Counted from the first letter of the stretch, positions 6,051 to 30,039 are shown. The stretch is DNA of 54,212 bases from an uncultured Candidatus Saccharibacteria bacterium (GCA_964500465.1 CAZCNB010000005.1:1-54212), one strand, 5' to 3'. Notes: a model not told the origin generated them from the letters alone. Made by a program: numbers and translations.

Positions 6051-6052
6051 CT

Positions 6053-6589: not shown

Positions 6590-6597
6590 AATAATTT

Positions 6598-7167: not shown

Positions 7168-7174
7168 TTCAAAA

Positions 7175-7183: not shown

Positions 7184-7189
7184 AGTTGA

Positions 7190-9242: not shown

Positions 9243-9662
9243 ATGCACCTAATTCTTATAAATCTAATTAGTTTACTTGGAATTTCTGGATTAGTACTCT
9301 CTTCTTATATTTACTTTAAGAAAAAGAAAAAAAAGAAAATGATTTGTCCGATGAGGTCAAATTGCGACAGTGTAATACACTCAGATCAATCCAAGATACT
9401 TGGTGTCCCTGTTGAACTATTAGGCATGGTTTATTATGCACTTATAGGACTTTCTTATGTTTTTATCTCGCTTTTAGGACTCTGGTCTTTTCCTGTTTCG
9501 ATAGTTCTTGTTGGTATTAGTGGGTCCGCATTACTTTTTTCAGTTTATTTGGTTTCTCTACAAGCTTTTGTAATAAAGCACTGGTGTACATGGTGTCTTT
9601 GTTCAGCTGGTATATCTCTTATCATATTCATTCTATCTTATTTAAATATAACTTTATATTAA
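9243..9662 (+). CDS. Vitamin K epoxide reductase (VKOR) family protein
   Basis: Loop cysteines CPMRSNC, LGVPVELLGMVYY, and an active-site CxxC within a TM (KHWCTWC). Confidence 0.7.
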   Translation: MHLILINLISLLGISGLVLSSYIYFKKKKKKKMICPMRSNCDSVIHSDQSKILGVPVELLGMVYYALIGLSYVFISLLGLWSFPVSIVLVGISGSALLFSVYLVSLQAFVIKHWCTWCLCSAGISLIIFILSYLNITLY

Positions 9663-9748: not shown

Positions 9749-9824
9749 GGTGCCTATAGTGTAATGGTTAGCACTAGAGTTTGTGGAACTCTCAGTCTGG
9801 GTTCAAATCCCAGTAGGCACCCCA
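9749..9824 (+). tRNA. tRNA-His (anticodon GTG) with encoded G-1 and encoded CCA
   Basis: G-GTGCCTA...AGAGT-TTGTGGA-ACTCT...CTGGG-TTCAAAT-CCCAG-TAGGCAC-C-CCA. Confidence 0.85.
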
Positions 9825-9835
9825 AAATATTTTTT

Positions 9836-10582
9836 ATGACGCAAACAATAATTTTATTTGTCACCTCAGTGATAGCTACAGGGTTGAGTTCTATGTCTGG
9901 TGGAGGTGCGTCAGTTATAGCTGTTCCTGTTATGATGTGGATGGGGATATCATTTCCACTTGCAATGTCAGTACAAAAATTTAGTTCAATATTCTGGGTA
10001 CTGCCAGCTTCCAGTAATTATTTGAAAGGAAGAAAAGTAAATTGGAAATTTTTAATTCTTTTTAGCCTACTTGGACTTTTGGGTGTATATATAGGTGTGA
10101 TAACCGTAGTTGCCATTGATAAGAGAGTTTTAGAAATTTGTGTTGGTATACTCATCATTCTTCTTGTTATATATACAGCGCTACGCAGAAATATAGGAAT
10201 CAAAGAAGAAACTGTTCCATCTAAGAAAAAAAGATTTATATCTTATGTATTCGGTCCAGTTTTAGGTTTCTATGAAGCAGTTTTTGGATCAGGTAATGGA
10301 ATAATGTTTGCAATTGTTACTCTGAAAACAAGAGGATTTGATTTTATTAATGCTCTTGGTTATTACTATTCGGTTGCATTTCCGTGGGAAATATTTGCTG
10401 CAGCTTTATATATATACAAAGGTTATTTTAGTTGGCATATCATGATACCCTGTGTTATAGGATCAATAATAGGTGGTTATATTGGTTCACGTTATGCAAA
10501 GTACAAAGGTAATGCATTTATAAAGATCATGTTCATCGCTATAGGTACAATCTTAGGCATTAAACTTCTAATTGGTTTCTAA
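9836..10582 (+). CDS. TauE/SafE-family (sulfite exporter-like) permease
   Basis: Polytopic membrane protein with Gly-rich TM helices typical of the family. Start trimmed to ATG 9836 because the longer ORF overlaps tRNA-His. Confidence 0.65.
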   Translation: MTQTIILFVTSVIATGLSSMSGGGASVIAVPVMMWMGISFPLAMSVQKFSSIFWVLPASSNYLKGRKVNWKFLILFSLLGLLGVYIGVITVVAIDKRVLEICVGILIILLVIYTALRRNIGIKEETVPSKKKRFISYVFGPVLGFYEAVFGSGNGIMFAIVTLKTRGFDFINALGYYYSVAFPWEIFAAALYIYKGYFSWHIMIPCVIGSIIGGYIGSRYAKYKGNAFIKIMFIAIGTILGIKLLIGF

Positions 10583-10645: not shown

Positions 10646-11044
10646 ATGAAGGGTTTTAAACAATTTGTCTTACGTGGTAATGTTGTAGATTTGGCAGTGG
10701 GTGTGGTTATCGGTGCGTCTTTTGGTACAGTAGTTACTTCTCTAGTTGAAAATTTAATAACTCCTCTTATTGCAGCAATAGTAAAATCTCCAGATTTTTC
10801 AGGACTTCTATTTACTATAAACGGCAGTAGTTTTATGTATGGTAAATTCCTAAATGCTTTGATAGCGTTTGTACTAGTTGCAGCCGCAGTCTACTTCTTT
10901 GTAGTTCTTCCTGTAAATACTCTCATTGCAAAATCCAAAAAAGAAGCACCTGTTGATCCTACAAGCAAGAAATGTCCAGAATGTCTAAGCGAGATTCCAA
11001 TTGCAGCAAAAAAGTGTGCTCATTGTACCTCAATAGTAGCCTAA
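10646..11044 (+). CDS. mscL: Large-conductance mechanosensitive channel MscL with a C-terminal zinc-ribbon tail
   Basis: MKGFKQFVLRGNVVDLAVGVVIGASFG is the MscL N-terminus. The C-terminus carries CPEC...CAHC. Confidence 0.85.
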   Translation: MKGFKQFVLRGNVVDLAVGVVIGASFGTVVTSLVENLITPLIAAIVKSPDFSGLLFTINGSSFMYGKFLNALIAFVLVAAAVYFFVVLPVNTLIAKSKKEAPVDPTSKKCPECLSEIPIAAKKCAHCTSIVA

Positions 11045-12239: not shown

Positions 12240-12794
12240 ATGAATCATATTCAATATGAAGAGTCTCCTGTCGCCAAATTTTTATTTGGTAATACAAAGT
12301 TTTCTTGGTTTTGGTTGGTTGTTCGTGTCTATGTAGGTTGGGAGTGGTTAATAGCAGGGTGGGGTAAATTTACTGGTACTGGCTGGGTTGGTGATGGTGC
12401 TGGTAATGCACTTTCTGGTTTTATGAAAGGTGCACTTGCAAAAACTGCTGGTGCTCATCCAGACGTACAAGGTTGGTATGCTACTTTTCTTGAAAATGTA
12501 GTTATCCCTCACGCATCTTTTTGGTCACATTTAGTTGTCTATGGAGAAATATTAGTTGGAATTGCACTCATAATTGGAGCGTTTACTGGTATAGCTGCGT
12601 TTTTTGGCCTATTTATGAATTTGAATTTTATGCTTGCAGGAACTGTTAGTGTGAACCCAATACTTTTTACTATAAGCATTTTCTTGATTCTTGCCTGGAA
12701 GACAGCAGGTTACATTGGGCTTGATCGTTACCTATTGCCACTTCTTGGAACGTACTGGCAACCAGGGCAACTATTTAACCACGGTTCTAAATAA
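12240..12794 (+). CDS. DoxX/DoxD-like membrane protein
   Basis: Four or five TM helices; the WLVVRVYVGWEWLIAGWGKF start resembles the DoxX/DoxD family. Confidence 0.45.
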   Translation: MNHIQYEESPVAKFLFGNTKFSWFWLVVRVYVGWEWLIAGWGKFTGTGWVGDGAGNALSGFMKGALAKTAGAHPDVQGWYATFLENVVIPHASFWSHLVVYGEILVGIALIIGAFTGIAAFFGLFMNLNFMLAGTVSVNPILFTISIFLILAWKTAGYIGLDRYLLPLLGTYWQPGQLFNHGSK

Positions 12795-15620: not shown

Positions 15621-17408
15621 ATGAATTCAGAGACCAGAATATGCCAAAATTGTCAGAACTCCTTTACCGTTGAACCAGATGATTTTTCTTTCTATGAGAA
15701 GATGAAGGTTCCAGCGCCTACATTTTGTCCAATGTGTCGTACTCAAAGAAGATGGGCTTTTCGTAATGAGCGAGGATTGTACAAAAGAAAATGTGATTTT
15801 TCAGGGAAAGAGATTTTTTCAATGTATGCTCCTGATTCACCTGTCAAAGTATATGAGCGAGATATCTGGCTTTCTGATTCATGGGATCCGATGGAGTATG
15901 GACGAGACATAGATTGGTCACGGCCGTTTCTTGCTCAACTTTATGAACTAATGCTTGATGTGCCTTTTAAATCTAATAATATTGTCCAAGGAGTAAATAG
16001 TGATTACTCTAATAATGCAACTGACCCAAAAAATTGTTATCTAGTTTTCAATACAACATGCCCAGAGGATTGTATGTATTCAAATGGACTAAATTATTCA
16101 AGAGACTGTGTTGATGTATCCCATGTTTCGAAATCAGAGAGTTGTTATCAAAGCTTTTGGCTTGGACAATGCTATCGATCTCACTTCTGTTCACAATGTG
16201 TGGATTCAAGTGATTTATGGTTTTGTCGTGATTGCCAGGGGTGTATGAACTGCTTCGGCTCAGTAAATCTTAGAAACAAAAATTATTATTTCTTCAATGA
16301 ACAACTATCAAAAGAAGATTATGAAAAAAGACTAAAAGAATATAATTTACATACTCATAGAGGAGTCGAAAAAGCTTTTAAAGAGACTCATGAATTTTGG
16401 AAAAAATTTCCTAACAAAAACCATCAAGGAATCAAAAACGTAGATTGTACAGGTTCCTATGTCAGTAACTCAAAAAATGTTAAAGACTCGTTTCTAATAA
16501 GAGAGTGCGAAAATTTGCGTTATTGTCAGTATTTACAAGAGACTCCAGGTTCTAAAGATTGTTATGATTATTCAAATTGGGGATATGGCGCAGAAATGGT
16601 ATATGAAGCTATATCATCAGGTTCGGGGATACAGAATGTAAAGTTTGGAATGTTTACTCAAGAAAGTGTCCACGACACGGAATATACAATAGGTTGCACT
16701 AATGGCTCAGCAAATCTATTTGGCTGTGTCGGTTTACGCAAGAAAGAATATTGTATTTTAAATAAACAATACACCAAAGAAAAATACAATGAATTGGTTG
16801 AAAAAATTAAAAAACATATGGATGATATACCATACATCGATAAGATGGAACGGATTTATAAGTATGGAGAGTTTCTACCAGTAGAATTTAGTCCTTGGGC
16901 ATATAATGAAACAATTGCTCAAGAATATTTTCCATTAACAAAAGAGGAAGCACTTGCAAAAGGTTATAGATGGCGAGAACCTGATACAAAAGATTATAAA
17001 CCTACAATACTATCAGAAAAAATTCCAAACGATATTAATGAAGTTAATGAATCTATAACAAAAGAAATAATTGAATGTGCTCACAAAGGAGAGTGCAATC
17101 AAGGATGCACAAAAGCCTTCCGTATAATTCCAGATGAACTCGCTTTCTATAAAAAAGTAGGACTTCCATTACCAATATTATGCCCAGCATGTCGTACAAT
17201 TGAAAGGTTAAAGTTAAGACTAGGAATTCAACTATATGATGAATCGTGTATGTGTAATGGGGCACAATCAAAAGATAGTATTTATAAGAACCAGGTTACA
17301 CACCCGCATGGGGATACCCCTTGCGAGAATAAATTTAAAACCGGATTTAAACCAGAAAACGGGGATTTAGTATATTGTGAGAGTTGTTACCAGCAAGAAG
17401 TAGATTAA
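15621..17408 (+). CDS. Cys-rich zinc-ribbon-bracketed protein, paralog 1 (uncharacterised family)
   Basis: Start trimmed to MNSETRICQNC by homology to paralogs 2-4. Shares the N-terminal module, the GLRxK-YCILNKQY motif, the C-terminal module and the terminal YCESCYQQEV with them. Confidence 0.75.
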   Translation: MNSETRICQNCQNSFTVEPDDFSFYEKMKVPAPTFCPMCRTQRRWAFRNERGLYKRKCDFSGKEIFSMYAPDSPVKVYERDIWLSDSWDPMEYGRDIDWSRPFLAQLYELMLDVPFKSNNIVQGVNSDYSNNATDPKNCYLVFNTTCPEDCMYSNGLNYSRDCVDVSHVSKSESCYQSFWLGQCYRSHFCSQCVDSSDLWFCRDCQGCMNCFGSVNLRNKNYYFFNEQLSKEDYEKRLKEYNLHTHRGVEKAFKETHEFWKKFPNKNHQGIKNVDCTGSYVSNSKNVKDSFLIRECENLRYCQYLQETPGSKDCYDYSNWGYGAEMVYEAISSGSGIQNVKFGMFTQESVHDTEYTIGCTNGSANLFGCVGLRKKEYCILNKQYTKEKYNELVEKIKKHMDDIPYIDKMERIYKYGEFLPVEFSPWAYNETIAQEYFPLTKEEALAKGYRWREPDTKDYKPTILSEKIPNDINEVNESITKEIIECAHKGECNQGCTKAFRIIPDELAFYKKVGLPLPILCPACRTIERLKLRLGIQLYDESCMCNGAQSKDSIYKNQVTHPHGDTPCENKFKTGFKPENGDLVYCESCYQQEVD

Positions 17409-17410
17409 TT

Positions 17411-19117
17411 ATGGAAACTAGAAACTGTCAAAACTGCAAAAATGATTTCAATATCGAGCCAGATGACTTTTCTTTTTATGAAAAGATGAAAGTGCCAGCG
17501 CCGACTTTTTGTCCGGAATGTAGGGCTATTAGAAGATTAACTTTTCGAAACGAAAGGGTTTGGTATAGGAGAAATTGTAATGCAACCAACCAGCCAATAC
17601 TTTCAATGTTCTCACCTGATTCACCCTATATTGTATATGAAGAAAAATATTGGAAAAGTGATGCTTGGGATCCAATGGATTACGGAAAGGAGTATGACCC
17701 AAATCGTAGATTTTTTGAACAGTTAGATGAACTTTTCAAAACGGTTCCTCATCCAAACCTAACTCAAAAAAATAATGTAAATTGCGGATACTCCAATTAC
17801 ACTCTTAACGGGAAAAATTGCTATTATTGCGCTAGTTTTGACGAAGTAGAGGATAGTTCATATTGTTTTACAAATAATACTAGAATAAAAAACTGCTTGG
17901 ATTTACATGTATCCTCTGAATCAGAATACTCTTACGAACTTATTGATTCAAAAAAATGTAATAGAGTGGCTTACGCTCAGAATTGTGAGTCATGCGTAAA
18001 TTCTACTTTACTGTACGATTGCAGAAATTGTACAGATTGCTTTGGTTGTGTTGGTTTGCGAAATAAACAATATTGTATTTTTAACCAACAATATGACAAA
18101 GAAGGGTATAAAGAAGCTATTAAGAAATTATGGGATGGTAGTTATTATGCAGCGCATGAAGCAATAGAAGCTTTTAATGAGTTAAAATTACAAATTCCTC
18201 ACAAATTTGCTAATATACTTAACTCTCAAAATGTGTCAGGTGATAATATTGCCAATGCTCGAAATTGTCATGAATGCTATGTTGCGAAAGAAAATGTAGA
18301 AAACTGCAAGTACTGTTATAGAATATGGGAAAATACAAAAGACGGTTGGGATACTTATTGTGCTTGGAAAGGTTCAGAACTTTTCTATGAGGCACATAGT
18401 ATAATTGGTCAACGCATATTATTTTCTCTCTATGTATGGGGTGGTCACGATATTGAGTATTCATACAATTGTTTTGACTGCAATGATATATTCGGCTGTG
18501 TTGGATTGAGAAATAAATCATATTGTGTTTTTAATAAGCAATATACAAAAGAGGAATATATAGATTTAGTTAAAAAAATCAAAGAAGACATGTTGAATAG
18601 TAAAGAATATGGAGAATTCCTTCCAAGTAGCATGTCGCCTTTTGCATACAACGAAACAATTGCTCAAGATTATTTTCCAATGACAGAACAAGAGATAAAT
18701 CAAAAGGGTTATAGATTTAAAAAACCAGAAACTAAAAGTTATAACATAACCATGGCTACTGAAAATATTCCTAACAATATATCAGATATAGATGAGTCGA
18801 TACTGGGTGAAGTTATTGGATGTTTGCATCAAGGAAAATGCTCTGATCTTTGTGCCACTGCGTTTAAAATTACAAAGGAAGAACTACAATTTTATAAAAA
18901 CTTAAATCTCCCTCTACCTCGTCTTTGTCCGAGCTGTCGCCACTTCAATAGAGTAAGATTAAAAAATCCAATGAAACTTTGGTCTCGTTTTTGTATGTGT
19001 GATAAACCAAATCACGACCATGAAAATAAATGCTCCAATGAATTTAAAACCCCTTATTCTCCAGATCGACCTGAGATAATTTACTGCGAGCAATGTTATC
19101 AGAAAGAAATTCTTTAA
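17411..19117 (+). CDS. Cys-rich zinc-ribbon-bracketed protein, paralog 2
   Basis: METRNCQNCKNDFNIEPDDFSFYEKMKVPAPTFCPECR...YCEQCYQKEIL. The ATG lies 2 nt after the paralog 1 stop (TAATTATGGAAAC). Confidence 0.8.
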   Translation: METRNCQNCKNDFNIEPDDFSFYEKMKVPAPTFCPECRAIRRLTFRNERVWYRRNCNATNQPILSMFSPDSPYIVYEEKYWKSDAWDPMDYGKEYDPNRRFFEQLDELFKTVPHPNLTQKNNVNCGYSNYTLNGKNCYYCASFDEVEDSSYCFTNNTRIKNCLDLHVSSESEYSYELIDSKKCNRVAYAQNCESCVNSTLLYDCRNCTDCFGCVGLRNKQYCIFNQQYDKEGYKEAIKKLWDGSYYAAHEAIEAFNELKLQIPHKFANILNSQNVSGDNIANARNCHECYVAKENVENCKYCYRIWENTKDGWDTYCAWKGSELFYEAHSIIGQRILFSLYVWGGHDIEYSYNCFDCNDIFGCVGLRNKSYCVFNKQYTKEEYIDLVKKIKEDMLNSKEYGEFLPSSMSPFAYNETIAQDYFPMTEQEINQKGYRFKKPETKSYNITMATENIPNNISDIDESILGEVIGCLHQGKCSDLCATAFKITKEELQFYKNLNLPLPRLCPSCRHFNRVRLKNPMKLWSRFCMCDKPNHDHENKCSNEFKTPYSPDRPEIIYCEQCYQKEIL

Positions 19118-19119
19118 TT

Positions 19120-20820
19120 ATGGAAACCCGAAACTGCCAGAATTGCAAAAATAACTTCACAATCGAACCGGATGATTTTTCTTTCTATGAGAAGATGAAG
19201 GTTCCAACACCGACGTTTTGTCCGGAATGTAGAATGATAAGAAGGATGATATGGCGGAATCATAGATCTTTTTACCGCAGAATATGTTTATTATGCAGTA
19301 AAACACTTTTATCTGTATATAAAGACGAACAAGCTCCAGTTATGTGCACTGAATGTTGGATGGGTGATAAATGGGACCCCCATATGAACCAAAGAGATAT
19401 AGATTTCAATATCCCTTTCTTAAGCCAAATAAATGAAATATTTAAACTTCAACCAAGGACATTTCAATACAGAGGTGGTTCTATTGTTAATTGTGATTAT
19501 GCAAACTCTGTATTTAACTCAAAAAATATATACTTATCATTTTCTCTTGTAAACTCAGAAGATATTTCCTTCTCAGAGAATGTTGATAACTCAAAAAACT
19601 CCATAGACTGCCTTTATTGTACGGAAATAGATAGATGTTCTTGGAACATAGACTGCACCGGTAATTATAACTGCCACTTTATGGTTGATTCACACAAGAA
19701 TATAGATTCTTGTTTCTTATATGATTGTACTAATTGTTCAAATTGTTGTTTATCTTCTAATTTAAGAAATAAATCATACGTATTTAAAAATATACAACTA
19801 TCAAAACAAGATTATGAAAAAGCAGTTCATGATTTAAAATTAAATACTTATTCTGGATTTAAGATGGCAGAAAAAGAATTTAACTCAATTAAATTAAATT
19901 CTATAATTAAGTTTGCAAAAAATATAAATTCAGTAAATGCAACAGGAGATCATATAGCCAATTCAAAAGATATCAAAAAATCTTTCGATATTGGAAAATC
20001 TGAGAATATTTCCGATACGTTTAGAGTAATTGAAACAAAAGATTTGAAAGATTGCTGTTGGGTGTTAAGAGGTGAATCTGAATATGAAACAATATCTGGA
20101 ACTGACAATTCTAGTAATGAGATTGGATGCGCAGTGTGTTTCACATCTACAAGGATGGAATATTCTCTTTTCTGTAGAGGATGCTCCGATTGTTTCGGAT
20201 GTGTTGGATTAAAAAATGCAAAGTATTGTATTTTAAACAAACAATATAAAAAAGAAGAATATGAAGAACTCGTTCCAAAAATCAGACAGCAAATGATGGA
20301 CCTTCCTTTTGTAGATTCCAATGGTCGTGTATATAGATATGGAGAATTTTTCCCATATGAAATGTCTCCTTTTGGATACAATGAAACACTAGCTCACGAC
20401 TATTTCCCTAAATCAAAAGAAGAAATAATTAACTCAGGTTTTAATTGGAAGGAACCAGAAGCTAGGGACTACCAGATAACTAAAGATGAGAGTAGTCTTG
20501 AGGATAGTATAGGAAATACTGATGATTCTGTGCTTAACGATATAATAAAATGCCCAAATCAAGGCAATTACTTATATCAGTGTACATCTGCATTTAGAAT
20601 CACAAAAGAAGAACTTCTTTTTTACAAGCAAAATAATTTACCTATACCAAGATATTGCCCAAACTGTCGTCATTATGAGCGTCTAAAATATAGAAACCCT
20701 ATGAAATTGTATAAAAGGTCTTGTAGTAATGGTTGTGGGAGAGAATTTGAGACTACTTATTCTCCAGACAGGCCTGAGAGAGTCTATTGTGAGCAGTGTT
20801 ATCAGGCTGAGGTTCTCTAA
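19120..20820 (+). CDS. Cys-rich zinc-ribbon-bracketed protein, paralog 3
   Basis: METRNCQNCKNNFTIEPDDFSFYEKMKVPTPTFCPECR...YCEQCYQAEVL. The stop-start junction TAATTATGGAAAC is identical to the paralog 1/2 junction. Confidence 0.8.
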   Translation: METRNCQNCKNNFTIEPDDFSFYEKMKVPTPTFCPECRMIRRMIWRNHRSFYRRICLLCSKTLLSVYKDEQAPVMCTECWMGDKWDPHMNQRDIDFNIPFLSQINEIFKLQPRTFQYRGGSIVNCDYANSVFNSKNIYLSFSLVNSEDISFSENVDNSKNSIDCLYCTEIDRCSWNIDCTGNYNCHFMVDSHKNIDSCFLYDCTNCSNCCLSSNLRNKSYVFKNIQLSKQDYEKAVHDLKLNTYSGFKMAEKEFNSIKLNSIIKFAKNINSVNATGDHIANSKDIKKSFDIGKSENISDTFRVIETKDLKDCCWVLRGESEYETISGTDNSSNEIGCAVCFTSTRMEYSLFCRGCSDCFGCVGLKNAKYCILNKQYKKEEYEELVPKIRQQMMDLPFVDSNGRVYRYGEFFPYEMSPFGYNETLAHDYFPKSKEEIINSGFNWKEPEARDYQITKDESSLEDSIGNTDDSVLNDIIKCPNQGNYLYQCTSAFRITKEELLFYKQNNLPIPRYCPNCRHYERLKYRNPMKLYKRSCSNGCGREFETTYSPDRPERVYCEQCYQAEVL

Positions 20821-21086: not shown

Positions 21087-23420
21087 ATGCCTTCAAAAAA
21101 AAGTGCTAAAAGTACAAAAAAGGTCGCAAGTGTTAAAGTATCTTCTGTTCCAGAAAAAATAATTAGTAAGAATAATTTTATTAAAAGTGTTCAAAAAAGA
21201 GATGGTGTTATCGTCCCTTTTGATATCGAAAAGATAGTTAATGCTATTAATAAAGCTATGCTTGCTTCTAATGAAGGCTCAATGAAGGAGGCTGAGATGG
21301 TTGCTAATAGGGTTGTAATGGAATTAGTTAAAATAACTAAGCGCCACAAGAATTTTATACCCACAGTTGAAGGTGTTCAGAACACTGTTGAGCAAGAATT
21401 GATGCTCGCTGACTATGTAAAGACTTCTAAAAATTATATTCTTTACCGTGAAGAACGTGCACGACTACGCGCACATAGCATAGTAGTGCCAGAGCGCGTT
21501 AAGAAACTTGCTGATGAAAGTAAAAAATATTTCCGCAATCCACTTTCTGAATTTGTTTACTATAGAAGTTATGCAAAGTGGATAGAAGAAGAGGGAAGAA
21601 GAGAAACTTGGATTGAAACAATCGACCGCTACGTTGCTTTCATGAAAAAAAATCTTGGTAATAAATTAAAAGAAAGTGAATACAAAGAAATTCGTGAAGC
21701 AATTTTAAAACAAGAAGCAATGCCATCAATGCGACTACTTCAGTTCGCCGGACCTGCTGCAGAGAAAACAAATGTTTGTGCATACAACTGTTCATTTATT
21801 GCACCATCACGCTTCGAAGACTTTGGAGAAATAATTTACATATCAATGTGTGGAACTGGAGTAGGATTTTCTGTTGAGAGTAAAAATATTCAAGCACTTC
21901 CACAAATAAAAAATCAAACAGGTAAAAAGTTGCCAACTTTCGTTGTTCCAGATACTAAAGAAGGATGGGCTGATGCTTTTGTGCTTGGAATGAAGACATG
22001 GTTTAACGGGGAAGATATAGATTTTGATTTTTCACAACTTCGTCCAGCTGGAGCTCGTCTTAAAATAATGGGAGGTAAGAGCTCTGGTCCTAAGCCGCTT
22101 ATTGATCTACTAGGATTTACTCGTGAAAGAATCCTAAAGCGCCAAGGCCGTCATCTTAGAAATATAGATGCACACGACATAATATGTAAGATAGGTGAGT
22201 GTGTAGTTTCAGGAGGTGTTCGCCGTAGCGCCCTTATTTCGCTATCAGATTTAGATGACCAAGACATGCGTGACGCTAAAAATGGTCAATTTTGGCTCAA
22301 CGAGGGCCAAAGAATGCTTGCTAATAACTCCGCAGTTTATAATACAAAACCAACAGAAACAGAGTTCTTAAAAGAATGGATTGCTCTTATGGAATCAGGC
22401 TCTGGTGAAAGAGGAATATTTAATCGAGGTTCATTATATACCTCACTTCCAAAACGCCGACTAGAAGTCTCAAAAAATTATATCGGCGAAATGGGAACAA
22501 ATCCTTGTGGAGAAATAATCTTGCGCTCACGACAGTTCTGTAATTTATCAGAAGTTGTTGCACGTTCCGAAGATACAGAAGCAACACTCATGAAAAAAAT
22601 TCGTATCGCAACAATACTTGGAACTTACCAATCTACTCTCACAAAGTTTGGATACCTTTCAAAGGAATGGAAAGACAATTGTGAAGCAGAAAGATTGCTA
22701 GGAGTTTCTGTAACAGGTCAATGGGATTCAACTGTTGCTCGAAATGGCGATATGTTGAAAAAATTAAGAAACGAAGCAATTCGTGTTAATAAAATCTATG
22801 CAAAACGTTTCGGTATAAACGAATCTACATGCATCACTTGTGTTAAACCATCCGGAACAGTTTCTCAAACAGTAGATTGTGCTTCAGGCATGCATCCAAG
22901 ACATGCTCCATACTATATCCGTCGTATTAGAATATCTGCAACAGATTCGCTATTTAAAATGATGAAAGATCAAGGTGTTCCTTATTATCCAGAAGTTGGT
23001 CAGTCAATCGATAGTGCAAATACTTTCGTATTAGAATTTCCAATGAAAGCACCAGATGGTGCAATATGTAAAGATGATATATCAGCAATTGATCAACTTG
23101 AACACTGGAAGGTAGTAAAAGTAAATTACACAGAACACAATCCGTCTGTAACAGTTTCAGTTGGAGAAAATGAATGGATTCAAGTTGCACATTGGCTTTA
23201 TCAGAACTGGGAAATAGTAGGAGGGTTATCATTCTTACCTCGTTCAAATCACGTTTATCAACTTGCTCCATATGAGGCCATTGATGAAAAAACATATAAA
23301 GCATTAACAAGCAAAATGCCAGATTTTGATTTCTCAAAAATCGTTACTTATGAACTTCGTGACGAGACAGAAGTTAAAAAGGAACTTGCTTGTGTTGCTG
23401 GAGTTTGTGATATAGTTTAA
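21087..23420 (+). CDS. nrdJ: Adenosylcobalamin-dependent (class II) ribonucleotide reductase with an N-terminal ATP-cone
   Basis: ATP-cone (VQKRDGVIVPFDIEKIVNAI), active-site TNPCGEI, a C-terminal redox Cys pair (ELACVAGVCDIV) and a size typical of monomeric class II RNR. Confidence 0.85.
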   Translation: MPSKKSAKSTKKVASVKVSSVPEKIISKNNFIKSVQKRDGVIVPFDIEKIVNAINKAMLASNEGSMKEAEMVANRVVMELVKITKRHKNFIPTVEGVQNTVEQELMLADYVKTSKNYILYREERARLRAHSIVVPERVKKLADESKKYFRNPLSEFVYYRSYAKWIEEEGRRETWIETIDRYVAFMKKNLGNKLKESEYKEIREAILKQEAMPSMRLLQFAGPAAEKTNVCAYNCSFIAPSRFEDFGEIIYISMCGTGVGFSVESKNIQALPQIKNQTGKKLPTFVVPDTKEGWADAFVLGMKTWFNGEDIDFDFSQLRPAGARLKIMGGKSSGPKPLIDLLGFTRERILKRQGRHLRNIDAHDIICKIGECVVSGGVRRSALISLSDLDDQDMRDAKNGQFWLNEGQRMLANNSAVYNTKPTETEFLKEWIALMESGSGERGIFNRGSLYTSLPKRRLEVSKNYIGEMGTNPCGEIILRSRQFCNLSEVVARSEDTEATLMKKIRIATILGTYQSTLTKFGYLSKEWKDNCEAERLLGVSVTGQWDSTVARNGDMLKKLRNEAIRVNKIYAKRFGINESTCITCVKPSGTVSQTVDCASGMHPRHAPYYIRRIRISATDSLFKMMKDQGVPYYPEVGQSIDSANTFVLEFPMKAPDGAICKDDISAIDQLEHWKVVKVNYTEHNPSVTVSVGENEWIQVAHWLYQNWEIVGGLSFLPRSNHVYQLAPYEAIDEKTYKALTSKMPDFDFSKIVTYELRDETEVKKELACVAGVCDIV

Positions 23421-23430
23421 TATCAAAATT

Positions 23431-23958
23431 ATGAATATAAATTTACTAAAATACATAATAGCCTTCACAGGTGTGCTAATTGTCAGACTCATACCTTTTA
23501 GAGCCCCTAACCTTGAACCAGTACTCGCTGTACAGATGCCATTTTCTAAAAAATACAGCAAAATTGCTTCATTTTTGTTTGGATTCTTAAGTATTACTGT
23601 ATATGATTTATTTACTTCTGGACTAGGCGTTTGGACTATTGTTACAGCTGTTTGCTATGGTTTACTTGGACTATGGGCATCATACTTCTTTAAAAATAGG
23701 TCAGGATGGAGAAATTACGCACTATATGCTGTTATGGCTACAATACTTTACGATTGCTTAACTGGGCTTACAGTAGGACCTATAGTCTTCGGACAGTCAT
23801 TTATATCTGCATTACTCGGTCAAATACCTTTTACCGCAATACACTTGCTTGGCAATGTATCATTTGCTATAGTACTTTCACCTATTATTGAAATGTGGTT
23901 ACAGAAAGAATCGAAGAAAGTCATAGTAAGTAGTAGTAAGGTAGTTTTGAATAGTTAG
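23431..23958 (+). CDS. Small polytopic membrane protein; candidate solitary vitamin (cobalamin?) uptake component
   Basis: 175 aa with 5-6 TM helices and an RLIPFRAPNLEPVLA motif. It sits between nrdJ and the cobalamin-riboswitch-like leader. The functional call rests on context only. Confidence 0.35.
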   Translation: MNINLLKYIIAFTGVLIVRLIPFRAPNLEPVLAVQMPFSKKYSKIASFLFGFLSITVYDLFTSGLGVWTIVTAVCYGLLGLWASYFFKNRSGWRNYALYAVMATILYDCLTGLTVGPIVFGQSFISALLGQIPFTAIHLLGNVSFAIVLSPIIEMWLQKESKKVIVSSSKVVLNS

Positions 23959-23976
23959 AACCTTTTAAAATTTAAT

Positions 23977-24105
23977 CTATTTTGTTTGGAAGTGAGGTTA
24001 GATTCCTCCACTGTGCCGCAACGGTAATACCATAAAATGGTCAAGTCCGATCTTAACAATATAGTTGTTCGTCCCGAGCAGGAACAGATTTTTATAGACT
24101 TTTAT
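23977..24105 (+). promoter_or_regulatory. Compact cobalamin riboswitch-like aptamer and linker
   Basis: P1-like helix ctattttgtt (23977-86) / aacaatatag (24055-64). The core reads ggaagtgaggttagattcctccactgtgccgcaacggtaa, resembling the GGTGAAAATCC...ACGG-CCCGCC-ACTGTAA core. A B12-box-like caagtccga lies at 24042-24050. Confidence 0.55.
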
Positions 24106-24145
24106 AAAAACTCCTCTGATTTCTACTCGGGGGAGTTTTTATTTT
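24106..24145 (+). terminator. Intrinsic terminator / expression platform of the riboswitch
   Basis: 11-bp stem aaaaactcctc / gggggagtttt(t) with a 13-nt loop, then tttttatttt, ending 1 nt before the ATG at 24146. The right arm contains GGAG 10 nt before the ATG. cccgag (24073-78) can alternatively pair with ctcggg (24126-31). Confidence 0.6.
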
Positions 24146-24574
24146 ATGAAAAAAACAATATTAAAAATAGTAGGAATAGCATTGATTGTAAATATTTTTG
24201 GAAATTTTAGTGTTTCTTTTGCGTATACGGATAAAGCTCCAACTAAAAAAGTTACTAATAATAAAAAAATTAAATCAAAAGAAAATTTTATAACTCTCCA
24301 AGTTGCAAGCAATGAGTACAAAATTTCGTATAAAGAAGGGGAGTCATTATATGACGCAATGAAAGGTTTTTCAAATAAAAAAGAAAATAAATTTTCTTTC
24401 AATTCAAAAAATTATCCAGGTTTAGGGAACTTTATTGATGAAATAAATGGTGTAAAAGGTACACCTGGCAAATATTGGATTTATTATGTTAATAACAAAA
24501 AAGCTTCAGTCGGAGCATCTAAATATATTCTAAAGTCAGGTGATACAGTAACCTGGAAACAAGAGGGAATTTAA
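24146..24574 (+). CDS. Secreted DUF4430-domain protein (transcobalamin beta-domain-like)
   Basis: Signal peptide; C-terminal GKYWIYYVNNKKASVGASKYILKSGDTVTWKQE matches the DUF4430 pattern. Confidence 0.65.
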   Translation: MKKTILKIVGIALIVNIFGNFSVSFAYTDKAPTKKVTNNKKIKSKENFITLQVASNEYKISYKEGESLYDAMKGFSNKKENKFSFNSKNYPGLGNFIDEINGVKGTPGKYWIYYVNNKKASVGASKYILKSGDTVTWKQEGI

Positions 24575-24590
24575 TAGTTAATTTTATTTT

Positions 24591-26702
24591 ATGAACAAAA
24601 ACAAAATTTTATCAATCCTAGTTTTACTATCAACCTTCCTACCATTTTCTAATATCACTTACGCTCTTGATGTTGTAGATATGAATCCACCAGTTATAAG
24701 TTTAGTTGGCAGTTCTACTGTAAATTTACAAGTAGGGGACTCATACACTGATGAAGGAGCAACAGCTACTGATGATGTGGATGGTGACATAACCGCGAAT
24801 ATCATAAAAACTGGATCAGTAGATACAAACTTAGCTGGGACTTATAATATAAGCTACGATGTGTCCGATATTGCAGGTAACCATGCTCCAACTGTCACAA
24901 GAATAGTCATTGTGTCTCCACTGCAACAAACTCTTAAAGAAAATGTCTTTATAAGAAGTGGAGATATTGTTATATATAGCGGTCAGATAGATTTACCAGC
25001 AGACGGTACTACAGACATCACTGATAATTTAGGTACTGTTCACCAAGTAAATAATAGAAGTGTTCTCGGTGTCTTATATACACTTGATCAAGTAACTGAT
25101 TCTTTCTCGCTATCTAATTTACAATACTTTGATTCATTTTCTTCTTTTTATATTAAATGCATTACTCCTAGTGGATCACCAGAACTTTGTGATAGCTGGC
25201 AATATGTAGTGGGAGGTACAAGTCCATGGACTAGTGTGGATAGTACTTTGCTTACTGGAGGAGAAAATATTGGGCTTTATTTTGGAAGTCCATATAGAGT
25301 AAGTTTAAGTAGTACAAGCGTAACAATATCAGACTCAGTTACAGCAAAAGCTGAATCATATAACTATACAGATAATACTTGGGCAAATAGAACAGGAGTA
25401 ACTATAGGAGTAACTGTTACTAACCCAAATGACCCATGGAATCCAACTGTTATTTCAACTCATCTTGTAGATTCAAATGGTCAGGCTGTCTTAACTTTCC
25501 CTGGTGAAGGTACTTATATAGTAGGAGTTTCTGAAGATTTTTATTTTCCATCTTATAATGTAACAGTAACTAAGTCTTCAGGCGGAGGTGGAGGATCTAA
25601 TCCTAGCGCTATATCTATACCTCAAGCACTTGCATTTTTGTCAGCAAACCAAAAACCCAATGGTTCTTTTGGTGATATGTTGTACACAGATTGGGCAGCT
25701 ATTTCTATAGCTTCTGCTGGAAGTCAGGCACAGAGCTTGAAAACCCTTATATATGATTATCTAAAAAATAATTCATACCAATCAAATACACTAACTGATA
25801 ACGAAAGACACGCTATGGCTCTAATGTCTCTTGGGATTAATCCGTACTCTGATACCGGAATAAATTATATAAAGAAAATAACCGATGCTTTTGATGGAAC
25901 TCAGTTTGGTGATAGTTCACTATACAACGACGATATATTTGCTGTTTTGGTTTTGTATAAGGCAGGTTTTGTATCAAACGATGACATAATAAAAAAATCT
26001 ATAAGTTTTATAATTTCCAAACAACAAGGAGATGGTTCATGGGGAAGTGTTGATATGACTTCTGCGGGTATTCAGGCACTAAGACAATTTTCAGATGTTA
26101 CAGGTGTCTCTCAATCTATAACACTTGCTGAAAATTATTTATCTAATTCTCAAGATAACAGTGGAAGTTTTGGAAACTCTTCGTCTACTAGTTGGGCCAT
26201 GCAAGCAATGTCTACGAATGGTGCATTTAGCTCAAAAGTTACAAACGGAGACAAATACTTAGCGTCACTTCAAGATAAAGATGGAGGTTTAGATGTATCA
26301 AGTTCAATAGAGAATAGAATTTGGTCTACTTCTTATGCAATCCCTGCCGCACTACATGTTCCCTGGACAAGCATAATGCAATTTTTTTCAAAACAAACAG
26401 TTACAAATGGAGATGTAAACAATACTCCAACACTGCCAGTTCTTCCAGTAGTTAATCCTATAAAAAATGATGATGTTGTCAAAAAAATCACAGACGATGT
26501 AAAACCAATTCTTAAAAAGAAAAAGAATAAAAAAGTTTTCATAGATACTAAAAATGTTAGTAATTCAAATCAAAATAATAGCCTAACAGCTTCTGTGGCT
26601 GATGCTTTAGCTAGTGAAAGTCCATCACCATCTGTATTTAGAAAAATAGTAAACGCTATCAAGGCCCCATTTATATGGCTTTTCTGGAAGCTTGGATTTT
26701 GA
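24591..26702 (+). CDS. Cell-surface protein with Ig-like and prenyltransferase-like alpha/alpha-toroid domains
   Basis: Domain order: signal peptide, Ig-like DUF5011-type domain, beta-rich middle, Gly linker, prenyltransferase/terpene-cyclase-like alpha/alpha-toroid repeats, C-terminal hydrophobic anchor. Key motifs are TDDVDGDIT...GTYNISYDVSDIAGN, SSGGGGGSNP and the repeated GSFG / DGSWGS / SGSFGN / DGGLD. Confidence 0.6.
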   Translation: MNKNKILSILVLLSTFLPFSNITYALDVVDMNPPVISLVGSSTVNLQVGDSYTDEGATATDDVDGDITANIIKTGSVDTNLAGTYNISYDVSDIAGNHAPTVTRIVIVSPLQQTLKENVFIRSGDIVIYSGQIDLPADGTTDITDNLGTVHQVNNRSVLGVLYTLDQVTDSFSLSNLQYFDSFSSFYIKCITPSGSPELCDSWQYVVGGTSPWTSVDSTLLTGGENIGLYFGSPYRVSLSSTSVTISDSVTAKAESYNYTDNTWANRTGVTIGVTVTNPNDPWNPTVISTHLVDSNGQAVLTFPGEGTYIVGVSEDFYFPSYNVTVTKSSGGGGGSNPSAISIPQALAFLSANQKPNGSFGDMLYTDWAAISIASAGSQAQSLKTLIYDYLKNNSYQSNTLTDNERHAMALMSLGINPYSDTGINYIKKITDAFDGTQFGDSSLYNDDIFAVLVLYKAGFVSNDDIIKKSISFIISKQQGDGSWGSVDMTSAGIQALRQFSDVTGVSQSITLAENYLSNSQDNSGSFGNSSSTSWAMQAMSTNGAFSSKVTNGDKYLASLQDKDGGLDVSSSIENRIWSTSYAIPAALHVPWTSIMQFFSKQTVTNGDVNNTPTLPVLPVVNPIKNDDVVKKITDDVKPILKKKKNKKVFIDTKNVSNSNQNNSLTASVADALASESPSPSVFRKIVNAIKAPFIWLFWKLGF

Positions 26703-26714: not shown

Positions 26715-27278
26715 ATGAAACTAAAATTTGTCGGCCTTGTAATAGTAATTATATTATTTGTAATTGGTTTAGGTGTTTTTATGAATAAAGTATCATCAGC
26801 TCCTAGTAAGTATGATGATTTTGCGAAAGCGTTAAAGACAGAAGGAGCCCAGTTCTATGGTGCATTTTGGTGTCCTCACTGTAAAGCTGTTAAAGATTTG
26901 TTTGGAAACGCTAAAAAATATTTACCATATGTTGAATGTTCTAATCCAGATCAGACAGTAACTCAAATTTGTGTTGATAATAAAATAGAAAGTTATCCAA
27001 CCTGGAAATTTAAAAATGGTATAACGTTAGCTTCACAAGGTAAACCTCTTGTTTGTCCAATAAGGTCAGAAAAACCGTATGAAGATGAAATTTGTAATCA
27101 AACTGGATCTCAATTTTACAAAACTTGGATCTTTCCAGAATACAAGTTTTCTATAAAAAGTCCAACTGATCCAGTTAGTAAAGATGGAGTTTGGAAATTT
27201 GTACCAGAAGCAGAAGTCACAGGTGAGACGCCACTTGAATTTTTAGCTTCACAAATAGGATTTAATCTACCTAAATAA
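26715..27278 (+). CDS. Membrane-anchored thioredoxin-like protein of the VKOR-partner type (WCPHC)
   Basis: FYGAFWCPHCKAVKDLFG...PYVECS...SYPTW...LEFLASQIG resembles the Trx-like domain fused to bacterial VKORs. A ~60 aa insertion precedes the last segment. Confidence 0.65.
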   Translation: MKLKFVGLVIVIILFVIGLGVFMNKVSSAPSKYDDFAKALKTEGAQFYGAFWCPHCKAVKDLFGNAKKYLPYVECSNPDQTVTQICVDNKIESYPTWKFKNGITLASQGKPLVCPIRSEKPYEDEICNQTGSQFYKTWIFPEYKFSIKSPTDPVSKDGVWKFVPEAEVTGETPLEFLASQIGFNLPK

Positions 27279-27279
27279 T

Positions 27280-27831
27280 ATGCCAGATTACATAGAGACT
27301 TTCAATAAACTACTTTCTTTTGGTACCATTATTTTACAATTAGTAGTGTTGTTGATTGCCGTTAATTTAATTTTTCTCAAATCACATAAAAATAAAATCT
27401 TAGTTTTCTTTAAAGACTATGGATTCTATTTTGGTTTTGCGACAGCTCTTGCTGGTGTTGCACTCTCACTATTTTACTCTGAGATAATTGGATTTCCACC
27501 ATGTGAGCTCTGCTGGATTCAAAGGATATTTATATATCCACAAGTGATACTTTTCGGCATGGAGTTATATAAGCGGGACCGGGCTATTGTTGATTACAGT
27601 ATGGTTATGGCAACTTTTGGTATGATTGTCTCATTGTTTCATATGTATGTAGAGCGTGGAGGAGCCTCTTCTCTTTCTTGCGCAGCAGGTGGAAAAGCAG
27701 CCGTGTCTTGTGCATTCTTGTATGTTGAAGAATTCTCCTACGTAACAATCCCTGTAATGGCACTAACCGCATCCGTTTTTATATTTATACTTCTTTTGAA
27801 TTATAAGTATATGACTCGTAATAAAATATAA
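27280..27831 (+). CDS. DsbB/BdbC-family disulfide bond formation protein
   Basis: PPCELCWIQRIFIYPQ (first CxxC in a TM), a second Cys pair (SCAAGGKAAVSC) and four TM helices. Confidence 0.75.
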   Translation: MPDYIETFNKLLSFGTIILQLVVLLIAVNLIFLKSHKNKILVFFKDYGFYFGFATALAGVALSLFYSEIIGFPPCELCWIQRIFIYPQVILFGMELYKRDRAIVDYSMVMATFGMIVSLFHMYVERGGASSLSCAAGGKAAVSCAFLYVEEFSYVTIPVMALTASVFIFILLLNYKYMTRNKI

Positions 27832-27878: not shown

Positions 27879-28307
27879 ATGCTTACAGAAACCATAGAAA
27901 AAGGAGGAAAAGATATAGTATTTGTATATACGACATGTCCTAGTACAGAAGAGGCTCGTTCTATTATACTTTCTTCGATAAAAGAAAAATTTGCTGTATG
28001 TGGAGATTTTTGGGAGATAAATTCTGTCTATCCTTGGCAAGGAGTTATACAAGATGTTTTCCAATATATGGTAATGCTTACTACCGAAAAGGAGACTGCA
28101 GATAAACTTGTTAAATTTGTGGAAGGATTGCATTCTTACAATGTTCCTATGGTTGCCAAACTAGATACTAATTTTATGAATTCTAATTATAAATTCTGGG
28201 TTGATAATGTATTAAACAGTAAAGGTGATTATATTTCAGAACACGATAAAAAATCTCAAGACAGAAGTGATGAAGGGAATGGTTATCATTATGGCAAGTT
28301 AAAATAA
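27879..28307 (+). CDS. CutA1-like divalent-cation tolerance protein with a ~40 aa C-terminal extension
   Basis: IVFVYTTCPSTEEARSI...VCGDFWEINSVYPWQGVIQDVFQYMVMLTT...LVKFVEGLHSYNVPMV fits the CutA fold pattern. Confidence 0.65.
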   Translation: MLTETIEKGGKDIVFVYTTCPSTEEARSIILSSIKEKFAVCGDFWEINSVYPWQGVIQDVFQYMVMLTTEKETADKLVKFVEGLHSYNVPMVAKLDTNFMNSNYKFWVDNVLNSKGDYISEHDKKSQDRSDEGNGYHYGKLK

Positions 28308-28308: not shown

Positions 28309-30039
28309 ATGGAGACTCGAGTATGCCAGAACTGTAAAAATAATTTCACCATACAAGCTGAAGATTTTTCTTTTTACGAAAAAATAAAAGTTCCTCCACC
28401 AACGTTTTGCCCAGATTGTTCACATCAACGCAGGTTTGCTTGGAGAAATACACATGCTTTATATCATAGACCAGATTCAGTAACTGGCAATGATATTATT
28501 TCTATATATCATCCCGATACAAAAATGAATATTGTAGATCAGAAGTATTGGTGGAGTGATAAATGGGACGCATATGAATATGGAAAAGAGTTTGATTTTT
28601 CAAAGGATTTTTTCTCTCAGTGGAGAGAATTGCGTGACAACGTACCATTTCAAGCCCTCTCCAATTCTAAAGCTATTAATAGCGAGTATTGCAATGTAGC
28701 CGAAGAAAGTTATGATTGTTACCTTATTTCAGCTTGTTGGAAGAATGAGCGCGTAATGTATGCAGATTCATTGGTGAAAGTAAAAGATTCAATGGATCTC
28801 TATATTGTAGAAGAAAGTGAATTTTGCTATGAAGATGTATATTGTAAGGAATCCTACAGGTTATTTTATAGCCAAGAATGTAATTCTTGTACAGAATCTT
28901 ATTTTCTCTATGATTGCAGAGGTTGCGTAGATTGTTTTATGTCTTCTGGACTAAGAAATAAAAGTTATGTATTTAACAATATTCAATTGTCTAAAGAAGA
29001 ATATCTTGAAAAGTTAAAACAATATGATCTTGGTAGTTTTTTAGTAATACAAAGCTTAAAAAAAGAATTTACAAAATTAAAAAATAACTCCATTAGAAAA
29101 TTTGCAACCATTAACAATAGCCAAGATGTAACTGGTGATCATATATATAACACATATAACTCCAAATCAGTCTTCGATGTTTCTGATAATGTTAAAAATT
29201 CCAAATATTTATTTTGGTCTGTGAATAATATTTTTGATTGTTACTACTCTAATGCGGTTGGAGCTATAGAGAATAGTTTTGAGATGAATGACGCCGGTGT
29301 TGGTGGTTTATTGTGTAGGTTTTCAAGTGTGGTCTACTCTTCTACAGAGGTTGATTATTCTTTTAATTGTTATAATTGCCACGATATATTTGGATGCATT
29401 GGACTTCAAAGTAAATCTTATTGTATTTTAAATAAACAATATACAAAAGAAGAGTATTTAGATTTGTTACCTAAAATAAAAAATCAAATGATGGAAGTTC
29501 CTTACATAGATCAAAAAGGTAGATCGTATAGATACGGAGAATTTTTTCCAATTGAGCTCTCACCGTTTTCTTACAATGAAACTGTAGCAAATGATTTCTT
29601 CCCTTTAACAAAAGAGGAAATAAATAAAATGGGTTATAAATACAGAGAGAAAGAAGGAAGAGATTACAAACCAACCATTAGTTGGTCTGATCTTCCAGAT
29701 AATATCTTGCAAATAGATGAAAATATTGTGAATGAAATAATTAGTTGTGACACTTTACCGGGTTCAGATAGATGTACTGTAGCATTTAAAATTAGACCAG
29801 ATGAACTAATTTTTTATAAACGTTTTAATATACCTTTACCCCGACGATGTTATCAATGCAGACATAAAGAGCGTTTTTTGACAAGAAATCCATTAAAACT
29901 CTGGCACAGATCTTGTATGTGTGAAAAAGAAGGGCATGTACATGAAGGGAGATGTTTGGTTGAGTTTGAAACAAGCTATGCACCAGAGCGACCTGAGATA
30001 ATATACTGTGAAAAATGCTACCAGCAAGAGGTGTTATGA
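28309..30039 (+). CDS. Cys-rich zinc-ribbon-bracketed protein, paralog 4
   Basis: METRVCQNCKNNFTIQAEDFSFYEKIKVPPPTFCPDC...GCIGLQSKSYCILNKQYTKEEY...YCEKCYQQEVL. The ATG lies 1 nt after the cutA-like stop. Confidence 0.8.
   Translation: METRVCQNCKNNFTIQAEDFSFYEKIKVPPPTFCPDCSHQRRFAWRNTHALYHRPDSVTGNDIISIYHPDTKMNIVDQKYWWSDKWDAYEYGKEFDFSKDFFSQWRELRDNVPFQALSNSKAINSEYCNVAEESYDCYLISACWKNERVMYADSLVKVKDSMDLYIVEESEFCYEDVYCKESYRLFYSQECNSCTESYFLYDCRGCVDCFMSSGLRNKSYVFNNIQLSKEEYLEKLKQYDLGSFLVIQSLKKEFTKLKNNSIRKFATINNSQDVTGDHIYNTYNSKSVFDVSDNVKNSKYLFWSVNNIFDCYYSNAVGAIENSFEMNDAGVGGLLCRFSSVVYSSTEVDYSFNCYNCHDIFGCIGLQSKSYCILNKQYTKEEYLDLLPKIKNQMMEVPYIDQKGRSYRYGEFFPIELSPFSYNETVANDFFPLTKEEINKMGYKYREKEGRDYKPTISWSDLPDNILQIDENIVNEIISCDTLPGSDRCTVAFKIRPDELIFYKRFNIPLPRRCYQCRHKERFLTRNPLKLWHRSCMCEKEGHVHEGRCLVEFETSYAPERPEIIYCEKCYQQEVL

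Follow-up and report, generated by a model that had tools for sequence, protein, structure and literature searches.

What do the three consecutive, cysteine-rich open reading frames (ORFs) at 15621–20820 of a 54,212-nucleotide stretch of DNA from an uncultured Candidatus Saccharibacteria bacterium (CAZCNB010000005.1:1-54212; this whole stretch is called the window below) encode, and why is such a set of genes kept? An initial annotation, made from the sequence alone, had described them as a tandem array of paralogs with no recognisable family. The present analysis indicates that they belong to a very large, Paceibacteria-restricted family of soluble, intracellular modular proteins with three Cys4 treble-clef-type fingers, a duplicated module of 12-residue repeats and an acidic core. 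Our favoured reading, to which we assign a probability of about 0.3 and which is drawn from sequence comparison, is that the family members may constitute a zinc-stabilised set of adaptor or partner proteins with paralog-specific solenoid surfaces, associated in many lineages with orphan VirD4-like ATPases.

The question extends beyond this window. Paceibacteria rank with the most abundant bacteria of groundwater and sediments and with the least understood, and their tiny (~0.8-Mb) genomes keep as many as nine ancient paralogs, or more, of this 570-amino acid protein. Despite its size, the family is modelled in neither Pfam nor NCBIfam, lacks a structural relative and goes unmentioned in the searchable literature, which points to a sizeable blind spot; that hypothetical families are common in genomes of the Candidate Phyla Radiation (CPR) tempers the surprise. 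The features of note are how large and how old the paralog arrays are, a confident but unmatched fold and a partial link to orphan ATPases that resemble the coupling proteins of type IV secretion systems (T4SS; the coupling proteins are abbreviated T4CP).

Domain anatomy and predicted fold of the paralogs

The three plus-strand ORFs were found where the initial annotation had placed them: copy A, the first gene of the array, at 15621..17408 (595 amino acids, 34 cysteines), copy B, which was used for the structure models, at 17411..19117 (568 amino acids, 37 cysteines, precisely the number counted earlier) and copy C at 19120..20820 (566 amino acids, 36 cysteines), the lengths being counted from the conserved M(x)ETRxCQNC start. 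Their paralogy, asserted at the outset, is borne out by pairwise identities of 42–44% across the full-length alignment and by tblastn E-values of 1e-133 to 1e-158, well above chance. The copies contain 8, 12 and 13 CxxC motifs, respectively, and all of the motifs originally quoted are present in the three-copy alignment, most of them still conserved across 185 members of the family. A fourth full-length paralog, copy D (28309..30039, plus strand; 576 amino acids), which had been overlooked, was found by tblastn and is 41–44% identical to copies A–C; with it, the four copies, all of them intact, jointly occupy 6.9 kb or ~13% of the 54.2-kb window and not the 5.2 kb or ~10% reported for three. 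The A/B and B/C junctions both read TAA-TT-ATG, leaving a gap of 2 nt each; such gaps are compatible with the translational coupling that had been proposed but are no proof of it.

We aligned 185 full-length members from 82 loci and compared slices of the alignment by HHalign (residue numbers are those of copy B, and all features lie on the plus strand). The protein begins with a treble-clef-type finger and its Arg-rich tail (residues 1–60, 17411..17590), in which C6, C9, C34 and C37 are each present in 98% of members, followed by a linker, WxSDxWDP…, that is likewise conserved in the alignment (residues 61–115). The central region comprises two homologous modules (residues 115–262 and 262–400, 17753..18610; HHalign 99.9%, E = 5e-37), an internal duplication that was missed when the region was described as pseudo-repeats. 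Each module contains about nine 12-residue repeats, with a hydrophobicity autocorrelation of 0.46 at lag 12, and is capped by a CxxCFGCVGLRNKxYC(I/V)xNxQYxKEEY hairpin and then a helix. An acidic conserved core without cysteines, YGEF(F/L)PxxxSPFxYNETIAQxYFP (residues 397–465, 18599..18805), leads into a second finger (residues 462–522, 18794..18976; C471, C481, C506 and C509) that matches the N-terminal one in type, has an Arg-rich tail as well and is homologous to it (HHalign probability 99.1%). The C-terminal finger (residues 520–568, 18968..19114; C528, C541, C559 and C562, each in 99% of members) ends in YCExCYQxE(V/I/L). Net charge alternates along the chain, the fingers with their tails being basic (+5.8 for the N-terminal and +5.2 for the second) and the solenoids (-5.8 and -3.3) and core (about -6; -6.3) acidic.

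Overall, the four Cys quartets are conserved in 91–99% of the 185 members and most other cysteines are variable: a member has 22–44 cysteines (median 34), of which ~20 positions are conserved and the remainder are present in 2%–70% of members. The central region has a cysteine cluster of its own (C195, C204, C207, C210 and C213; C354, C363 and C372). The presence of Cys4 quartets at both termini supports the zinc-ribbon bracketing proposed earlier, and the pattern suggests that the quartets bind zinc. None of 213 family ORFs has a transmembrane (TM)-like hydrophobic window, and because the first zinc-finger cysteine is at residue 6–8, there is no room for a signal peptide. Both features support a soluble, intracellular protein, as judged from sequence, in agreement with the cytoplasmic location originally suggested. 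An AlphaFold2 (AF2) model of copy B based on a 46-sequence alignment reached a predicted local distance difference test score (pLDDT) of 82.5 and a predicted template modelling score (pTM) of 0.84, and the central modules modelled alone formed regular β-strands with a period of ~12 residues (strand pLDDT 84–91). The central modules are thus predicted β-solenoids.

The four window copies gave nothing above threshold against Pfam-A, NCBIfam, PADLOC or PHROGs; matches in PHROGs were marginal and only to function-unknown families, and no PADLOC defence model matched at E ≤ 1. The last ~30 residues of all three copies A–C scored 15–17.9 bits in Pfam and 14.3–15.5 bits in NCBIfam against PF23477 (zf_Tbcl_2) and TIGR04272, for which the curated cut-offs are 27 and 36 bits, respectively. 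When 46 members were scanned singly, PF13451 (zf_Tbcl) was matched by 14 and PF23477 by 13, all below the cut-offs (best PF13451 match, E = 7.5e-4), and PF00412 weakly by two; PF13451 gave no match to the window copies at E ≤ 10. A Med15_N match in the same scan was compositional and is regarded as spurious. Residues ~60–465 had no consistent family match in the single-member scans, and the central ~350 residues matched no Pfam, NCBIfam, PADLOC or PDB entry. Sequence searches of the PDB with a single sequence, the full-family profile and the N-finger profile returned RF3, a LIM protein and mitochondrial bL27m, which were dismissed as non-significant.

Structure comparison gave a similar picture. 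With the full-length copy B model, Foldseek found nothing better than E = 7 in the PDB and, in BFVD, only small phage "putative zinc-ribbon domain" proteins, which superposed on a finger (root mean square deviation (rmsd) 0.5 Å over 38 columns). With the central module alone, it returned pectate-lyase-like helices, tailspikes and pentapeptide-repeat proteins (E ≥ 0.007, probability ≤ 0.47, TM-score < 0.25), which is a resemblance of fold class and not homology. In the searchable literature, including that on the Pfam and TIGRFAM identifiers and on cysteine-rich or zinc-ribbon Parcubacteria families, the family is undescribed. The original view that no family is recognisable therefore holds for the whole protein, although the terminal fingers are weakly recognisable as zf_Tbcl and zf_Tbcl_2; the profile and structure searches, which had been named as a possible source of refutation, yielded no confident match to a family of known function.

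Size, distribution and age of the arrays

In a word-indexed search of clusters formed at 90% identity, at least 7,936 were significant, and all of the named ones are called "hypothetical protein". An exhaustive search of 50%-identity representatives returned 3,806 clusters at E ≤ 1e-3 and 1,521 at E ≤ 1e-30, and nearly all of the best 150 matches listed were full-length (545–600 amino acids). At least 583 stretches were confirmed in the GTDB species representatives. Named relatives are all Patescibacteria, chiefly of Paceibacteria/Parcubacteria lineages (Nomura-, Staskawicz-, Lipton-, Jorgensen-, Giovannoni-, Kaiser-, Niyogi- and Sungiibacteria and Minisyncoccia). Two further loci bearing family genes, L070 (JAMPXW010000002.1) and L032 (CAYZAZ010000094.1), are labelled Burkholderiales and Gammaproteobacteria; L070 shows Paceibacteria-type synteny over a 268-kb contig, and both metagenome-assembled genomes are probably mis-binned or mislabelled.

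Across the 82 loci, each of ~20 kb, a single copy was found in 31 and two copies in 17, with three in 14, four in 10, five in 4, six in 2, seven in 1 and nine in 3. In each of the 92 pairs of adjacent family genes, both genes point the same way, and the gap is ≤10 bp in 39 pairs; by their layout, these tightly spaced same-strand arrays look like operons. For 99% of members, the closest relative resides in another locus, the median best identity being 45% within an array vs 61% to another locus, and upon clustering at ≥50% identity, only 2 of 153 members grouped with a paralog from the same array. The expansion noted in the window is accordingly ancient and family-wide and not local, with 99% of closest relatives in other genomes. 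These comparisons indicate that the paralogs predate the divergence of the lineages and have been maintained as a non-interchangeable set.

Comparison of the four window copies with their orthologs (for copy B, L001 at 82% and L003 at 77% identity) gave synonymous differences per site (pS) of 0.70–0.89, which is saturated, and nonsynonymous differences per site (pN) of 0.12–0.22; between copy B and L001, pN is lowest in the solenoids, at 0.09. These values show strong purifying selection. The selective importance claimed for the family is thereby upheld, and the dN/dS-type check that had been proposed gave no sign of relaxed selection. The same values reject the reading of the genes as non-functional or selfish duplicates, that is, as decaying tandem copies or a mobile repeat, which we consider extremely improbable. 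Copy content does differ among close relatives (L001 has no ortholog of copy A), and one copy, in L073, is split; in contrast, the four window copies are all intact, the paralogs are older than the lineage divergence and no link to transposases, phages or plasmids was detected. A tblastn search of phage and plasmid collections returned no family match, and a mobile-element origin is therefore rejected. The split in L073, into overlapping ORFs at 5795–6964 (389 amino acids) and 6958–7536 (192 amino acids), is a frameshift pseudogene or an assembly error and is the only internally split copy noticed among the 213 family ORFs.

It is in the solenoids that the paralog groups differ most. Agreement of consensus sequences between orthogroups is 0.52–0.53 in the solenoids vs 0.67–0.82 elsewhere, and conservation within orthogroups is uniform (0.67–0.79).

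Neighbouring ATPases and competing explanations

We clustered all neighbouring ORFs in the 82 family loci. The commonest neighbour, present in 32 loci, is a T4CP-like ATPase (TrwB_AAD_bind, DUF87, TraG-D_C), which lies within 1.5 kb of a family gene in 27 of the 82 loci (22 of 49 multi-copy vs 5 of 33 single-copy loci). These ATPases match TrwB, T4SS-DNA_transf, FtsK and HerA models and have no TM-like segments. Of two subtypes that often flank the arrays, T4CP-zf (~690–730 amino acids) usually lies upstream of the array and carries a bona fide PF23477 zf_Tbcl_2 finger (46–49 bits; cut-off 27), with which the C-terminal finger of the family aligns at an HHalign probability of 90.4% (E = 1.4e-6); T4CP-short (~490 amino acids) usually lies downstream. 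Genes recur in the order mem464, T4CP-zf, family array, (CutA1), T4CP-short and a further family gene, where mem464 (~464 amino acids) shows homology to the N-terminal extension found in a third ATPase subtype, a fused form of 790–920 amino acids. The closest sampled ortholog of copy A (68% identity; L053, 6757–8541) is located immediately 3' of a T4CP-zf ATPase. CutA1 directly adjoins family genes in 8 loci from several lineages (~10% of loci; median gap, 30 bp), and neither VirB4 nor channel genes were identified in the arrays examined. Patescibacteria genomes have about two orphan VirD4-like genes each, nearly all far from virB4, for which exaptation has been suggested (PMC12102498).

Several observations concern the ATPases themselves. 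The conserved pair of soluble VirD4/TrwB-like ATPases occurs in L002, L054, L053, L023, L040, L070, L073, L076 and others; the C terminus of the long form ends in EVPEDVLKKILE and that of the short form in EPLI or EPMI. The long form is 56–79% identical across classes, a housekeeping-like conservation, and the ATPases match phrog_5156 (E = 1e-61 and 1e-55). In a Nomurabacteria-like lineage (L053, L023, L040, L070, L048, L045 and L049), dnaK and dnaJ flank the T4CP-zf/family/T4CP-short block on the same strand. This context prompted us to consider heat-shock control by HrcA, which was discarded upon finding no CIRCE operator in the window or any locus.

We propose that the fingers and the conserved core would serve as a common chassis and the solenoid faces as paralog-specific binding surfaces, such that an array could provide co-expressed adaptor or partner proteins as a fixed set, with a different ligand (protein or nucleic acid) for each. 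In many lineages, the set may be in partnership with a pair of orphan soluble VirD4/TraG-like ATPases bearing the same C-terminal finger, the family proteins acting as specificity adaptors or clients of those ATPases. A bolder version, which we regard as distinctly doubtful, would combine the family, the two orphan soluble VirD4-like ATPases, their membrane-associated partner mem464 (a split N-domain) and CutA1 into an unrecognised Paceibacteria-specific, ATP-driven translocation or remodelling machine, in which the paralogs are interchangeable specificity subunits or clients. If true, such a machine would be central to the episymbiotic lifestyle and would explain why several percent of coding capacity is spent on the family in 0.8-Mb genomes.

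Several results weigh against the adaptor proposal. No T4CP-like ATPase is present anywhere in the 54-kb window. In the reciprocal test, a family member was found in only 10 of 80 metagenome loci sampled through T4CP-zf; a family gene lies directly downstream of the long ATPase type in 3 of 9 cases and of its shorter relatives in 1 of 52, and in L093 the two ATPases lie side by side, without an intervening family gene. The ATPases clearly need no family gene next door. Given the weak reciprocal test and the ATPase-free window, the association is therefore lineage-restricted and not obligatory, although it seems real, exceeding a rough estimate of chance about ten-fold whichever way it is sampled. 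Strict specificity positions, conserved within but differing between orthogroups, number only 2 of 568, and the claim of paralog-specific surfaces therefore rests on regional averages alone. Further, the two AF2 models of the central region disagree on the amount of regular β-structure, and zinc occupancy is read from cysteine patterns only, for which Fe–S clusters or disulfides would be alternatives.

The same observations bear on three further explanations, and the probability left over goes to something other than the readings named here. The proteins could be exported cargo or effectors, delivered to the surface or to a host by a non-Sec route through neighbouring ATPases of the secretion type (either T4CP-like or, in the window, that of the type IV pilus), with disulfides stabilising narrow β-solenoids, as in insect antifreeze proteins. 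Cysteine-rich solenoids with 12-residue repeats are a typical feature of extracellular proteins, signals for T4SS export usually lie at the C terminus, and the C terminus of the family is invariant; T4CP-like ATPases adjoin family genes in a third of loci, a family gene is found beside PilB/PilC in the lineage of the window, VKOR, DsbB-like and thioredoxin-like genes for oxidative folding are present in the genome, and runs of non-identical paralogs in tandem typify secreted toxin/immunity repertoires. We nevertheless judge export to be unlikely: the proteins have neither a signal peptide nor a TM segment, the neighbouring ATPases also lack TM segments, and the best-conserved cysteines form classic Cys4 finger quartets, typical of intracellular proteins. 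Moreover, the solenoids are under purifying selection and stable between orthologs, whereas surface and effector proteins would be expected to evolve fast, and Pfam and PADLOC scans detected no toxin, enzyme or immunity domain. Orphan T4CPs are, in addition, mostly far from virB4 (PMC12102498).

Also unlikely, in our view, is a nucleic-acid-directed role, in which the basic tails of the fingers would be DNA- or RNA-binding and the acidic solenoids would mimic DNA or read sequence, together with FtsK/HerA-superfamily ATPases in DNA uptake, segregation or defence. The charge distribution (+5.8 and +5.2 for the Arg-rich finger tails; -5.8, -3.3 and -6.3 for the solenoids and core) and the TrwB, T4SS-DNA_transf, FtsK and HerA matches of the adjoining ATPases fit this role, and the weak Foldseek matches include the DNA-mimic pentapeptide-repeat proteins MfpA, EfsQnr and AlbG; those matches, however, are non-specific (E ≥ 0.007, probability ≤ 0.47, TM-score < 0.25), no PADLOC defence model matches the family and phage and plasmid collections lack it. 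Treble-clef fingers, moreover, bind proteins as often as nucleic acids, which we count against this role. The remaining explanation makes the proteins high-capacity cytoplasmic Zn/Cu (or Fe–S) or thiol-redox buffers that act with CutA1 in organisms without most conventional homeostasis systems. The 22–44 cysteines per protein (median 34), the adjacency in 8 loci of CutA1, which belongs to a divalent-ion tolerance family (at 1 nt in the window), the dnaK–dnaJ placement in one large lineage and the cluster of redox genes in the window would all suit a buffer. A buffer, on the other hand, would have no use for 570 residues, conserved non-Cys motifs and ancient subfunctionalised paralogs, and only ~20 cysteine positions are conserved, the others being present in 2%–70%. 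With CutA1 adjoining the family in only ~10% of loci, its own biochemical role unclear and no CIRCE heat-shock operator in the window or any locus, we hold buffering to be improbable.

The window setting and comparison with known systems

The window is AT-rich (31–41% GC) and gene-dense, with the majority of genes on one strand. Upstream of array A–C lie a DoxX-like gene and one for an ATP-binding cassette (ABC) exporter; a gene for a DUF475/TerC membrane protein is also found there, on the opposite strand. Downstream, a 266-bp intergenic region separates copy C from a class II (adenosylcobalamin (AdoCbl), B12-dependent) ribonucleotide reductase (RNR) with an ATP-cone (21087–23420), which is followed by an energy-coupling factor (ECF) S-component-like gene (23431–23958), an AdoCbl riboswitch (23964–24092; RF01482, 58.3 bits) in front of a DUF4430 gene (24146–24574) and a gene for a 703-amino acid protein with Ig-like, cyclase-like and TED-like domains (24591–26702). 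This B12-themed cluster (21087–26702) looks like a riboswitch-controlled cobalamin capture/uptake operon. Further downstream, CutA1 (27879..28307, plus strand; PF03091, E = 3.7e-21) ends immediately before copy D, which begins 1 nt past it, and PilB begins 14 nt past the end of copy D, on the same strand, followed by PilC and three pseudopilin genes (30054–34532). The neighbourhood of family gene, CutA1 and PilB recurs in L001 and L013. We considered a functional tie to the RNR/B12 neighbours and to PilB and rejected both as local synteny: the former adjacency is confined to 3 related loci, and the latter is found in 4 loci only, three of them closely related.

Redox and oxidative-folding genes (MsrA, VKOR, DoxX, thioredoxin-like and DsbB-like) are dense in the window (6053–6589, 9243–9662, 12240–12794 and 26715–27831). 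A tRNA-His (9750–9824) overlaps the mechanical start of a TauE-like ORF (9764–10582), the true start codon of which is therefore further downstream. The MscL gene (10646–11044) has a weak C-terminal UPF0547 zinc-ribbon match (residues 108–127), an unusual appendage for MscL. Two large ORFs, 7190–9241 (683 amino acids) and 34540–36300 (586 amino acids), have no Pfam match at E ≤ 1e-3; the latter follows the pseudopilin genes and may encode a pilus-associated protein. A promoter/terminator scan of this AT-rich DNA was uninformative (41 promoter-like sites vs 29 expected).

Treble-clef fingers and β-solenoid repeats are familiar as building blocks; the way in which they are combined, the central module and the family itself are undescribed in Pfam (2025 copy), NCBIfam 20.0, the PDB and the searchable literature. 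The outcome of this work is a domain map, a set of structural cysteines and a repeat definition able to seed a new family model, together with a testable link to orphan VirD4-like ATPases, the role of which in Patescibacteria has been recognised as an open question (PMC12102498). Should the tie to the ATPases prove true, it would reveal a new CPR-specific system of ATPase plus adaptor.

Among known domains, the closest to the fingers is PF13451 zf_Tbcl (a "probable treble clef domain", formerly "probable zinc-ribbon domain"), with which the N-terminal and second fingers share CxxC-x3-F-x-(I/V)-x3-(D/E)-x2-FY-x-K-x3-P-x-P-x2-C-x2-C-R. CxxC pairs ~20–25 residues apart together with F…FY…K…P…C-x2-C-R are what we take to be the defining signature of PF13451; in the 185 members, C6/C9 and C34/C37 are present in 98% and F13, F22, Y23, P29, P31 and R38 in ≥90%. 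The family differs in falling below the Pfam cut-off and in having the finger twice per protein, with an Arg-rich tail, and PF13451 itself has no known function. The extreme C terminus, C…C…F-x-T-x-Y-x-P-x-R-P-x3-YC-x2-CY, is related to PF23477/TIGR04272 (CxxC-x17-CxxC), a domain that also has no known function, but scores below its cut-offs and has C-x12-C in place of CxxC as the first cysteine pair. LIM/CRP proteins (PDB 1ctl), likewise of treble-clef type, gave the sole PDB match by sequence profile, over the C-terminal double-finger region, but this match is non-significant (E = 0.65), and the family is without LIM consensus spacing.

As in β-solenoid proteins (MfpA/Qnr/AlbG and pectate-lyase-like β-helices), the central modules consist of short tandem repeats predicted to form stacked β-strands, and they are acidic, as are the DNA-mimic pentapeptide-repeat proteins. 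The resemblance is of fold class only, with an rmsd of 8–19 Å, a repeat of 12 vs 5/20 or ~22 residues and no Pfam match; the 12-residue β-helices of insect antifreeze proteins may be comparable in repeat length. Metallothionein-like and metal-storage proteins differ from the family, in which many non-Cys residues are ≥90% conserved and the length is ~570 amino acids. Finally, although the family proteins are not ATPases, their ATPase neighbours have no TM anchors and the association is lineage-restricted, ATPases similar to the T4SS coupling proteins VirD4/TraG/TrwB are the most frequent neighbours of the family, and a conserved C terminus and multi-gene sets beside an ATPase are features that it has in common with T4SS substrates and adaptors.

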